From assembly GCA_051362555.1 (NCBI GenBank), contig CM120646.1, positions 17,918,001 through 17,982,000 on the forward strand: a DNA stretch of 64,000 bases. The letters run 5' to 3'. The translations under genes and the position numbers were made by a program. Below are positions 4,452 through 25,086 of this stretch, in pieces. The stretch is from Lingula anatina (Eukaryota; Animalia; Brachiopoda). Below the pieces are notes generated by a model. It worked only from the letters and a program-made list of their open reading frames with translations, was not told where the DNA came from and searched no databases. Position 1 is the first letter of the stretch. Each line of letters begins with the position of its first letter.

Positions 4452-4997
4452 TTACTTAGAACCAGATGTCAATTTTTGAACCAAAACTTGCTTTAAGTCT
4501 TTTGTAGCTTTCTCAAGCAATTCAATCTTAGCTTGCAGTTCTGAATTTTCCTTTGCCAGGCGAACAGCTTCTTCTTCCATTTCAATGTATTTGTTTTTAC
4601 GCTGTTCACGGGAGCGTTTGGAAGCAATATTATTCTTTCGCCTTCTTTCTCCATATCTATCATTGCTTCCAGATGCAGTGGTTGTTACAGATTCAGTGTC
4701 ACTTTCAGATGTCACGCTGTTCACTTTTGCTCTCTTTGTGACAATATCTGATGTCACACTGTCAGTTTTTCTCTTTTTTCCACGCGAGTAATCATGATCA
4801 ATTGTAGAATTGGAATCTGTGCTGTCAGAGTCATTGTGATCCACCTCTGCTGAAATGTCGGCCAAATCTACAGTGCCAAAGCTTTCACTGGACTGGCTAG
4901 GTTCAGTTACTATGGTAACATTGTCAATAGTTGGGACTAACTCGTGTGCCTCAGATGTGGATGTTTCAGTGTTGCTTTGTTCAACTGGCATGGTGTT
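4452..4997 (-). CDS. bZIP transcription factor (PAR/C-EBP-like), last coding exon containing the basic region and leucine zipper
   Basis: RYGERRRKNNIASKRSREQRK basic region (invariant N..R) followed by M/L heptads; ctttcag| acceptor at 4998-4999, phase 0; TAA at 4452-4454. Confidence 0.92.
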   Translation of the reverse strand, partial: NTMPVEQSNTETSTSEAHELVPTIDNVTIVTEPSQSSESFGTVDLADISAEVDHNDSDSTDSNSTIDHDYSRGKKRKTDSVTSDIVTKRAKVNSVTSESDTESVTTTASGSNDRYGERRRKNNIASKRSREQRKNKYIEMEEEAVRLAKENSELQAKIELLEKATKDLKQVLVQKLTSGSK

Positions 4998-5188: not shown

Positions 5189-5403
5189 CTGTTCAATGTA
5201 TTTAGACAAATCAGCAAAGTCATCCAGAAATTCGGTCTCATTAAATAACCAGTCATTTTCAAAGTCATCAGAAGCCGCCTCTACTGAGGTGTCAGGGTCT
5301 GGTCCCTCCTTTAACACTGTCTGCTTCATACAAGTCATTAAGAGGTCGTCACATTCTTCATCAGCAAATAGATCCAATTTCAATGTTTCTTTAAGGGAAT
5401 CAC
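5189..5403 (-). CDS. bZIP factor, middle coding exon (acidic: DSLKETLKLDLF...DWLFNETEFLDDFADLSKYIEQ)
   Basis: ttttag| acceptor and CAG|gtagg donor; phases 1 and 0 join both neighbours in frame; acidic-hydrophobic, activation-domain-like sequence. Confidence 0.85.
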
Positions 5404-6473
5404 CTAAAATGATAAAAATTAATTTTTATAATAAGTGTTTTTAAACAATTATGTACTTAATTAAATGTGTTAATGTTTAAGTTAAATACCATTTCTTTCA
5501 GGAATCACAAAATTCAGCAAAAATGGAAAACGACTTCACTTATGAAAAAGAAAATGAAAGCAAATTTTTTTTAAAAATCACTGCATGTGCTACCCTTGCA
5601 ATGTTATCTTGTTTTTTCTGTTAAATATTTCCAAAAAGTAGGTAAAATAAAATTTGAAAAAAAAAAGAAAGAGAAGAAGCATAAATCTACCTTTAGTTGC
5701 ACACATTTCAGCTTATTGTGAAATTTCCTAAGTACCACTGCATATATATATACCAGACCCTGAGTTAAAACCTGTTTTGCTTAGGACAGCTACATTTTGA
5801 TTGAAATTGCTGACTATGGTGAAATTACTGATATACCCAAACTGATGCAATGTTCCAGAAATAGGCATGATTGAACTCTGACCTATTTCATGTCCTGGGA
5901 CTTTGCTAACCTGGACTGATTTAGAATGACATAAGGGGCCTTGTTGCTAGAGTGGCTATTGATTTATTGATAAGGACTTGCTGATAACAATGAGATTTCA
6001 GGTGGTGGTGCAATACCTTCATCACGTTCTGAGCATGCACGAACTTGCTAACATCCGCCCCTTCAGGGAAATATTGACTCGAAAGCATAAACATGCCTGG
6101 GCAAGCCATTTATGTTTTTTTCAACCGATATTTCTCTTTATATCAATCATCATTTTAATAGAGGTACAGGTAGATCAACCTGTAAGACTTGCTTAACTTT
6201 GCATCAAGTAAAGGCTTTTTTTTTAGGAATGTGGCATTAGTATGTCTAAGGAAAGCATTTTGATTTTTTGTTCAGAATAATCATTTTGTCATGTATAATG
6301 ACAGTCAAAGGTTTTAAAATAGCACTTTTCCTATAATTGTTTCTTTTTGGTAAAAATAAAGCTCTTTTCTTCCCAACATTCTCCATTTTTTTATCCAGTA
6401 TATTCCCCTCTCCCTAATTATCCACTCTAATAACTTTTAACTCAAGATATACCAAAGATCAAACTTTACTTAC

Positions 6474-6789
6474 TTGGGTTAAATAGGCCACTCGTCTTCT
6501 GCACTGAACGTGCGTAGATCGAGGAACTGTCCAAGGCCTCCGCATCCCCATAACTCAACAGCGTGGCCTCCAAGGTCGTCCACGCCTCCTGGTCTAGGCC
6601 AGTCAGGGTATCGGTGGTGGTTGTGTCCACTGCTTGGCTTGTGCCACTTGAGGGCTTGACCATGACTGGTGCTAAAATCTCGGTCACCAGAGTCTCCTTC
6701 ATCACTGGAGATGTCTCCCAAATTGGAGACGCCTGAGGCGTCTCCCAAGAGGGAGACATTTCCCCCTTGGCCCCTACCCTTCCTATCAT
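6474..6789 (-). CDS. bZIP factor, first coding segment from the first in-frame AUG (MIGRVGAKGEMSP...GLFNP); spliced product 358 aa
   Basis: A|gtaagt donor (phase 1) joins exon 5403 in frame; first in-frame ATG at 6789; frame stays open upstream to 6966, so the true start is uncertain. Confidence 0.75.
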
Positions 6790-6823
6790 CGCTGCTGGAT
6801 CCTTGATTTCGTAAGAGGTACAT
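6479..6823 (-). promoter_or_regulatory. Overlapping uORF (114 codons, -1 frame relative to the bZIP CDS)
   Basis: ATG in TCAAAC-ATG context (A at -3), 34 nt upstream of the main ATG; open to TAA at 6479-6481. Confidence 0.7.
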
Positions 6824-6890
6824 GTTTGACTTGGTGAAACGTTGTAATCAAATGTGGAAATTGTACTCTCTGTTGGACTGGGTGTTAAGT

Positions 6891-6905
6891 TCAAATTAGG
6901 TTCAT
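6891..6905 (-). promoter_or_regulatory. Short uORF (MNLI*) in the bZIP leader
   Basis: ATG AAC CTA ATT TGA read on the - strand. Confidence 0.65.
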
Positions 6906-7037
6906 CAAGTTCAGACAACAATTCTTCAAAGTTGTTGAACTGGAGTGAAATGGTGACCGCGGTCGGTTACCACTTTAAATCAAAACTGGGATGGGCGTGT
7001 GTGTGTGTGAGGTGGGGGTGTTAATGTCACCCACAAA

Positions 7038-7043
7038 TTACAT
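7038..7043 (-). promoter_or_regulatory. Start-stop element (ATG TAA) in the bZIP leader
   Basis: First ATG of the predicted mRNA; exon 2 starts at 7126 after a tttttacag acceptor. Confidence 0.55.
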
Positions 7044-7465
7044 CAATCGAAAGTCTCTTTCTCTCTCTGGACGCCGCTGCTGGCGATGGGGGCCCCTTGC
7101 CGGGTGTTAACCTCTCCGTTTCGTTACTGTAAAAATCAAAATTAAGATATTTTACAAATTGGATACATTTCACACGGTATTCATTTGTACAAACAGGGTT
7201 GTTTTGTCGAATTATCTTGAATTATCAGAGTAAAATATGCTGTGTTGTCAAGATTATTTGGAATAAAACACCGACATGTTAGTAACGCCAGCCGGTTTTG
7301 ATTGGATCGAATGTATCAGTTTGTTTTGTCCTTAATTCCAAGGAAAATTCAAAATAATACATCAAGTTGTAAAAGACTGAAATTATTCTATCAGTTATGC
7401 AACATATTACTTAATTACTATAATGTATAATGTTAAATTTCCTCATGAAATCAACCACATCTCAC

Positions 7466-7640
7466 CTCTCTCGCCTCTCTAGATGGTGATTGCACCACCA
7501 GCTGCAAGGTGTATATATACTGGCAGCATCACGTCCCAGTTTAGCACATGATGTCACTGGTAACCAATCAGAAGCTTGCTGAGTGATAAATTTAGACTTT
7601 GCGTATTGCGGTCAATGATGTCAATTTCGACCAATCGGGG
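7466..7640 (-). promoter_or_regulatory. Core promoter and short non-coding exon 1 (about 7490-7466) of the bZIP gene
   Basis: TATATATA at 7512-7519 about 25-30 nt before the putative TSS; GAG|gtgag donor at 7465; CCAAT boxes at 7564 and 7631; TGATGTCA CRE-like sites at 7549 and 7616. Confidence 0.65.
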
Positions 7641-25011: not shown

Positions 25012-25086
25012 TTATGCAATGTGTTATGGATATTAGTTATGCAATATGTTATGGATATTAGTTATGCAATATGTTATGGATATTAG
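25012..25086. repeat. 25-bp tandem repeat, three copies
   Basis: Unit TTATGCAATATGTTATGGATATTAG (one substitution in copy 1). Confidence 0.9.

Follow-up and report, generated by a model that had tools for sequence, protein, structure and literature searches.

A candidate +1 frameshift site at the end of a conserved overlapping reading frame in a C/EBP-PAR-like bZIP gene of Lingula anatina

The 114-codon upstream open reading frame (uORF) overlapping the start of a bZIP gene in Lingula anatina is likely to be the conserved first frame (ORF1) of a two-frame gene, with a +1 shift at or just before the sequence AUU-UAA-C that would carry ribosomes into the bZIP frame (ORF2). This reading comes from sequence comparison, in which the conservation of the uORF peptide together with that of the nucleotides at its stop indicates a +1 frameshift. 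The initial annotation had described the same elements as an ATF4-type leader with delayed reinitiation. Its overlapping uORF is real, expressed and under selection, and its comparison with zip-2 and Xrp1 is apt; the delayed-reinitiation design is not borne out, as neither the short uORFs nor the main AUG are conserved and conservation lies at the uORF stop instead.

The gene, LOC106170376, has an annotated protein of 358 residues and is placed by stranded RNA reads on the minus strand of the window, by which we mean the whole stretch of 64,000 nucleotides analysed. RNA reads from three studies (6 raw runs) confirm the strand, the limits of exon 2, both downstream introns and the short exon 1 without AUG (Table 1). 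Exons 1 and 2 as mapped by reads both begin upstream of the ORF1 AUG at 6823. The spliced main ORF encodes 358 residues, two of which differ from the database protein P0001. The PF07716 (bZIP_2) match of the Lingula protein is above cut-off, and its bZIP region ranks solved structures in the order C/EBP alpha/beta, then NFIL3, GCN4 and ATF-2, with no ATF4 among the 20 chains listed. Judged by sequence, the protein is thus a C/EBP-PAR-like, non-ATF4 bZIP, as had been stated from its basic region. The Atlas search with the Lingula bZIP returned generic bZIP_2 clusters, and nematode and arthropod bZIP clusters lie near the related locus L044 (0.93-0.95) as leads only. The DHDY motif fits the D/E-H-x-Y consensus for HCF-1 binding, and among the 152 family proteins, a set with many fragments, 86 contain [DE]HxY.

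Table 1. Features of LOC106170376 within the window (positions are those of the window; read depth and joints are from RNA runs)
Feature	Position	Strand	Evidence and remarks
TATA-like box	7512..7519	-	Some 30 nt ahead of the 5'-most base supported by reads; sequence; presumed function
Exon 1, non-coding, without AUG	7466..7482	-	Loose read ends at 7128 match 7468-7482 uniquely; GT donor at 7465; 5' end is a minimum
Exon 2: leader, entire ORF1 and ORF1/ORF2 overlap	6474..7126	-	Read depth and joints, 6 raw RNA runs
Start-stop element ATG-TAA (ttgATGt)	7038..7043	-	Weak context; not conserved in orthologues
4-codon uORF (ttgATGa)	6891..6905	-	Weak context; not conserved in orthologues
ORF1 (uORF2 of the initial annotation), 114 codons, stop TAA 6481-6479	6479..6823	-	Ends in family motif TF-x-x-ED-x-WP-I-stop; predicted N-terminal part of a putative transframe fusion protein
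First AUG of bZIP frame (ORF2; start of annotated 358-aa protein)	6787..6789	-	Position not conserved in family
Candidate +1 shift site G-UGG-CCU-AUU-UAA-C	6478..6491	-	Matrix score and conservation
Exon 3 (ORF2)	5189..5403	-	Read joints; preceding phase-1 intron starts 5 nt after ORF1 stop
Exon 4 coding part, ORF2 to stop	4452..4997	-	3' UTR continues below 4452
DHDY motif, residues 244-247 of P0001	4788..4799	-	[DE]HxY match
bZIP domain, C/EBP-PAR-like	4509..4661	-	PF07716 E 1.8e-13
Introns	7465-7127, 6473-5404, 5188-4998	-	Read joints and sequence

Part of intron 2 (5692-6255) also carries RNA coverage, with a depth of 8-19 per mate direction in one unstranded run and about 2 in two stranded runs, and no joint listed; it may correspond to a retained intron, a minor exon or an internal start. 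The same intron contains a perfect match to the C/EBP-ATF composite site TGATGCAAT at 5843-5851, and a copy with one mismatch is located near 7490-7500, in the interval from the TATA box to exon 1. Autoregulation through such sites could be imagined, but they are not above chance in the window and are not evidence for it, because a scan with TKATGCAAT returned 8 sites against 3.4 expected, partly inside a repeat. Elsewhere in the window, TTATGCAAT is present three times at 25-nt spacing in 25012-25070, probably as a short tandem repeat.

The spliced leader of 354 nt holds exactly three AUGs ahead of the coding sequence (7043, 6905 and 6823), as originally described; since about five are expected from its composition, the number alone is no more than chance. 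The distance of 67 nt from the 4-codon uORF to AUG 6823 and the weak context of both short elements, each with U at -3, also stand as reported. The context of AUG 6823, first called strong, is only adequate (aacATGt; A at -3, U at +4), although this AUG does open the 114 codons claimed for it. The resulting ORF overlaps the main ORF, whose AUG at 6789 (gcgATGa) follows 34 nt downstream in the +1 frame relative to the uORF, and the in-frame AUGs noted at 6759, 6702 and 6663 are present. Between the start-stop element and the 4-codon uORF, the leader shows a CA-repeat length polymorphism (2- and 4-nt deletions at 6995-7000) that affects no reading frame.

A comparison of orthologue leaders did not recover the conserved order of upstream AUGs that had been proposed. 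In 19 of 22 orthologue transcripts no AUG comes before that of ORF1, which has a purine at -3 in 20 of 22, and the short uORFs are thus not conserved. Together these leaders contain 3 AUGs where 59.6 are expected, a sum that excludes L036, as its 5' part, with 16 AUGs, may be unspliced. ORF1 is therefore the primary start of the family.

The first clue to a family-wide pattern was the protein motif G-[LIP]-F-[DN], found in 59 of 152 family proteins within the first 200 residues and at a distance of 132-287 residues from the basic region that follows; among the proteins without it, many are fragments or later starts. Annotated starts lie anywhere from 2 to 100 residues upstream of the motif. 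In Lingula, reading the uORF stop in the other frame gives this motif, as UUU AAC contains UAA. Named family members come from Solemya, Mytilus, Potamilus, Ruditapes, Lymnaea and Biomphalaria. From a DNA scan keyed on the basic region only, 59 related loci were obtained, and a motif-free screen found in 30 of them an AUG-started ORF of at least 40 codons, in the -1 frame, that ends inside the bZIP frame; 26 of these 30 ORFs end W-x-[I/V/L/F]-stop. The site G-UGG-CCU-NUU-stop-Y is present in 41 of the 59 loci (28 transcript-like and 13 genomic, truncated and genomic loci counted). Among the 18 loci without it, 17 include insufficient upstream sequence or run out within introns (L049 being borderline), and the remaining one is L057. 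This full-length distant bZIP relative has a 42-codon AUG ORF (359-487) that overlaps the bZIP frame, again in +1, and ends inside it in three stops, without the NUU-stop site; it is possibly a zip-2-like variant.

The consensus from 32 non-redundant sites, Lingula included and picked partly with the motif, is G-UGG-CCU-NUU-URA-Y, with no variation in the G at -10, in UGG or in the UU-U at the stop. NUU occupies the P site in 32/32 (AUU 17, GUU 10, UUU 3, CUU 2) and the proline codon is CCU in 27/32; the stops are UGA (21), UAA (10) and UAG (1), and the +4 base is C (26) or U (6). As background, NUU precedes 44 of 492 other same-frame stops and UGG..NUU precedes none, while a pyrimidine follows 271 of them. 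A matrix built without Lingula scores 40.8 bits at 6481, and the next best score on both strands of the window (128 kb) is 16.2.

Across the family, ORF1 is mostly 53-89 codons long and encodes an acidic helix, [LV][DE]ELVDxLDI, followed by a C-terminal TF..ED.WP. Lingula ORF1 keeps TF..ED.WP and has the family LDELVD-LLDI helix only as a degenerate copy. Between loci L025 and L027 the peptide shows 9 synonymous against 2 non-synonymous changes. A divergent clade (L037-L039, L044, L047, L058 and L059) keeps the site and the following intron donor and has a basic ORF1, unlike the acidic ORF1 elsewhere. Neither a Pfam match nor profile similarity to ORF2 was obtained for ORF1, and among 7995 candidate proteins of 201-2000 residues none carries ORF1 in frame, which is weak evidence; the protein P0091, discussed below, is shorter than this range. 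A bZIP tree built from 74 columns, without reference bZIPs, places the site on most branches and is too weak for orthology.

The constraint on the sequence changes frame at the ORF1 stop. Over 8 orthologue pairs, differences favour the third positions of ORF1 before the stop (63/63/118) and those of ORF2 after it (201/120/106), a switch with a Fisher p of 6e-11, where the pairs share ancestry and are not independent. In-frame readthrough of the ORF1 stop is rejected, because the constraint past the stop lies in the +1 frame.

Within the species label, reads of the runs X8 and X10 (6440-7640) show a divergence of roughly 4-5% from the window over exon 2, with many differences fixed, which suggests a cryptic lineage. 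This divergent lineage has 16 substitutions in the overlap and none in the last 79 nt of exon 2 (p 0.01-0.04). Of the overlap substitutions (ORF2 codons 1-79), 10 of 16 are synonymous in ORF2, where 5.0 are expected (p 0.008), and 3 of 16 are so in ORF1. Thus the N-terminal extension of ORF2 seems to be translated in Lingula, where bZIP protein probably arises also from a start at AUG 6789 or from a shift at an earlier point. No substitution in this lineage removes an upstream AUG, and retention of the short uORFs says little because the divergence is only about 4-5%.

Downstream of the site, a 10-bp stem starting 9-11 nt after the stop can be formed in 12 of 24 transcripts, and its columns hold several pair types each (covarying). 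Since the partner arm was chosen per sequence, the control is the count at offsets of 13 nt or more, which is 0-3 of 24. The fold z is below -1.5 in 14 of 24 transcripts (Mann-Whitney p 4e-4 against downstream windows). Lingula shows no 3' hairpin at this position (z +1.0; 6/10 pairs). All 13 of 13 genomic loci have an intron donor pattern 5, 8 or 14 nt past the stop, and each time, like the Lingula intron, it is in ORF2 phase 1. Splicing from the invariant GU at -10 was considered and rejected, because its phase is wrong and no reads use it.

In the mechanism that we propose, most ribosomes would by default start at ORF1 and terminate at its stop, which would keep the factor low and probably expose the mRNA to NMD. 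Under slow termination or elongation, the P-site tRNA on NUU would re-pair on UUU and translation would proceed into ORF2, the shift codon lying somewhere among the last few codons of ORF1. Helpers could be the conserved 5' nucleotides or the nascent peptide, the weak C/U context at +4 and the hairpin that many relatives have where the mRNA would enter. The predicted Lingula fusion would comprise 114 + 255 = 369 residues. The most likely role, by analogy with C. elegans zip-2, would be that of a fast sensor of translation stress; we rate this trigger somewhat below an even chance, and it may alternatively be polyamines, or shifting may be constitutive and low-level.

A precedent for such a site is antizyme. 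Natural antizyme shift sites are UUU-, AUU- and GUU-UGA, CUU-UGA is functional in an assay, and the weak +4 context is C or U (Ivanov and Atkins 2007, PMC1874602). The bZIP family resembles antizyme in its short ORF1 with ORF2 in +1, in UUU, AUU or GUU before the stop and C or U after it, in conserved 5' nucleotides and, as predicted, in lineage-specific 3' stem-loops (PMC1874602). As in antizyme-type genes, ORF1 carries the first good AUG and ORF2 overlaps it in the +1 frame; a putatively shifty P-site codon is likewise conserved at the ORF1 stop with a weak +4 context. Unlike antizyme, the protein is unrelated, UAA is common among the stops and an ORF2 AUG lies in the overlap in most members. 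Membership of the Lingula gene in the antizyme family was rejected: its ORF2 encodes a bZIP protein, and an Rfam search matched no antizyme RNA family and nothing else of relevance.

The likeness to zip-2 is one of architecture. According to the accessible text of Kniazeva and Ruvkun (2025; PMC11831180), genetic evidence favours a +1 shift from the overlapping ORF (oORF) into the main ORF of zip-2 on elongation stress, independent of eIF2alpha phosphorylation, and the fusion peptide was not detected. Like the Lingula gene, zip-2 encodes a bZIP protein and has an AUG-started overlapping ORF with the DNA-binding frame in +1 and the ORF stop upstream of an intron (PMC11831180). Its oORF has 146 codons and starts MYHA, and Lingula ORF1 starts MYLL; its main AUG varies between species and is dispensable, and the ORF2 AUG position is also variable in the Lingula family (PMC11831180). 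In contrast, the zip-2 conservation described there is within Caenorhabditis only, with no fixed site and shifts proposed along the overlap (PMC11831180), whereas the Lingula family has a single NUU-stop site kept across a brachiopod, the named bivalve and gastropod members (as a protein-level trace) and many further animal sequences. PREL-stop closes the zip-2 oORF, and inspection by eye recognised neither its conserved block nor the two short oORF motifs quoted in the paper in the ORF1 of this family (PMC11831180).

Other ways of producing the bZIP protein have to be weighed against the frameshift. ORF1 might be a conserved-peptide uORF whose C-terminus (TF..ED.WP-x-stop) stalls the terminating ribosome, with the bZIP protein made separately by leaky scanning, by queue-assisted initiation at an AUG or near-cognate codon of ORF2 in the overlap, or by reinitiation near the stop; we regard this as unlikely. 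It would agree with the selection on the ORF1 peptide in L025/L027 and with the ORF2-frame constraint on the Lingula overlap. It would also agree with an ORF2 AUG upstream of the ORF1 stop in 33 of 36 loci, Lingula included (within the 30-codon test window upstream of the stop in 30 of 36, with 22 expected), and with the 6 ORF2 stops found in those 30 codons against 23 expected, near-duplicates included, a depletion that a shift at the stop alone leaves unexplained. An AUG or near-cognate codon with a -3 purine precedes the ORF2 Phe by 4 codons in 13 of 27 loci, but ACA or ACC, which are not starts, occupies this -4 position in 14 of 32 sites, and a search across the family loci found no conserved near-cognate or other non-AUG start for ORF2. 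Moreover, the ORF2 AUGs range from -4 to -102 codons relative to the site and are absent upstream of the stop in three loci with an open post-stop ORF2 (L014, L025 and L027). In L025 and L027 ORF2 has no AUG for 71-80 codons past the ORF1 stop as well, and this part evolves as coding sequence: its codon changes comprise 7 synonymous and 6 non-synonymous ones, and every gap in the protein alignment is in frame. Stalling also leaves unexplained the fixed synonymous choices (NUU, CCU and the G at -10), the +4 pyrimidine and the fixed-distance 3' hairpin. Against the frameshift, overlapping protein constraints (WP in ORF1, GLF[DN] in ORF2) could hold a good part of these bases constant; in L044, ORF2 retains GLFD while the proline of ORF1 is lost.

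ATF4, ATF5 and GCN4 have delayed-reinitiation leaders, with an out-of-frame uORF overlapping the bZIP ORF. The Lingula gene shares with them the overlapping out-of-frame uORF and the short uORFs upstream, and the element order is present and expressed. Delayed reinitiation of this type would have the short uORFs translated and, once eIF2alpha is phosphorylated, AUG 6823 bypassed with a start at 6789 or later. It would be in keeping with the constraint on ORF2 codons 1-79, with the two tiny uORFs of L007 and, in the accessible text of PMC8514241, with the induction of Xrp1 downstream of PERK, yet we judge it improbable. Unlike ATF4, ATF5 and GCN4, the family has no conserved short permissive uORF or main AUG, its conservation peaks at the uORF stop and its basic region is nearest C/EBP and NFIL3; the short uORFs are missing from all but three of the 22 orthologue leaders, the two in Lingula lack a good -3 base, the bypass window is 34 nt, and delayed reinitiation does not account for the conserved distal end of the uORF. 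Furthermore, excerpts of the cited papers describe zip-2 induction as independent of eIF2alpha phosphorylation (PMC11831180) and an Xrp1 leader that alone conferred no induction (PMC13268129). Joining of ORF1 and ORF2 at the RNA level, through an alternative 5' donor within ORF1, by IRE1-type excision, by editing or by slippage, would need no recoding and is highly improbable. One protein of 191, P0091, does have an ORF1-like N-terminus fused in frame to ORF2 with the end of ORF1 skipped, as an upstream donor with the usual acceptor would give. This 196-residue protein, with ORF1 joined to ORF2 and bZIP, has two internal deletions and lacks about 110 internal residues; it may be a rare splice form or a gene model with invented introns. 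No such joint or indel is seen in the 6 raw Lingula RNA runs, in three of which 278 reads cover the normal junction or its allele, all 28 transcript-like contigs have the unfused form, and there is no conserved phase-1 donor (good consensus in 0/32). The frameshift and its rivals can coexist in Lingula.

In Drosophila, Xrp1 is likewise a C/EBP-class stress bZIP with a long, peptide-conserved overlapping uORF, and differs from the Lingula gene by an AT-hook and a uORF of 288 aa (excerpts of PMC8514241, PMC13268129 and PMC6946401). Its uORF2 is conserved as protein and matches the annotated Xrp1 N-terminus in other Drosophila species (PMC8514241, accessible text). This conservation, taken with the insufficiency of the leader alone, would fit a similar frameshift reading, of which the accessible parts of PMC13268129 and of bioRxiv 10.64898/2026.10.09.757274 make no mention for Xrp1. 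As for the gastropods, the available text on ApAF from A. kurodai gives 360 aa and a PKA site at Ser-266 (PMC2064337; also PMC2546398). ORF2 of L001, which resembles the named gastropod members, has 356 aa from its first AUG with RRVS at Ser-263; with respect to ApAF this is a numerical match only.

A wider hypothesis is possible, though rather doubtful: an ancient animal bZIP family, comprising brachiopods, molluscs, further lineages and likely ApAF, would be decoded by a conserved antizyme-like programmed +1 frameshift. The annotated N-termini would then be off-frame by-products, the real protein would start with the acidic ORF1 helix, and the family would represent, on the lophotrochozoan side, a frameshift-gated sensor of translation stress to which nematode ZIP-2 and fly Xrp1 also belong. 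For lophotrochozoan bZIP genes, a full-text literature search, with most subscription papers outside its coverage, found no paper that describes frameshifting or a conserved uORF. To our knowledge, chromosomal animal genes offer very few conserved cases of programmed +1 frameshifting, with antizyme as the standard one (see PMC1874602).

If the +1 frameshift proposed here is true, the gene would provide a rare, widely conserved programmed frameshift in an animal gene, here one for a transcription factor, at a defined site that several invertebrate lineages retain. It would be a sharp test object for the zip-2 model, where there is no defined site or fusion peptide, and would suggest re-reading Xrp1, whose uORF is conserved as protein. 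Finally, the database proteins of this family, possibly including the ApAF of the long-term facilitation work, would carry a wrong N-terminus.
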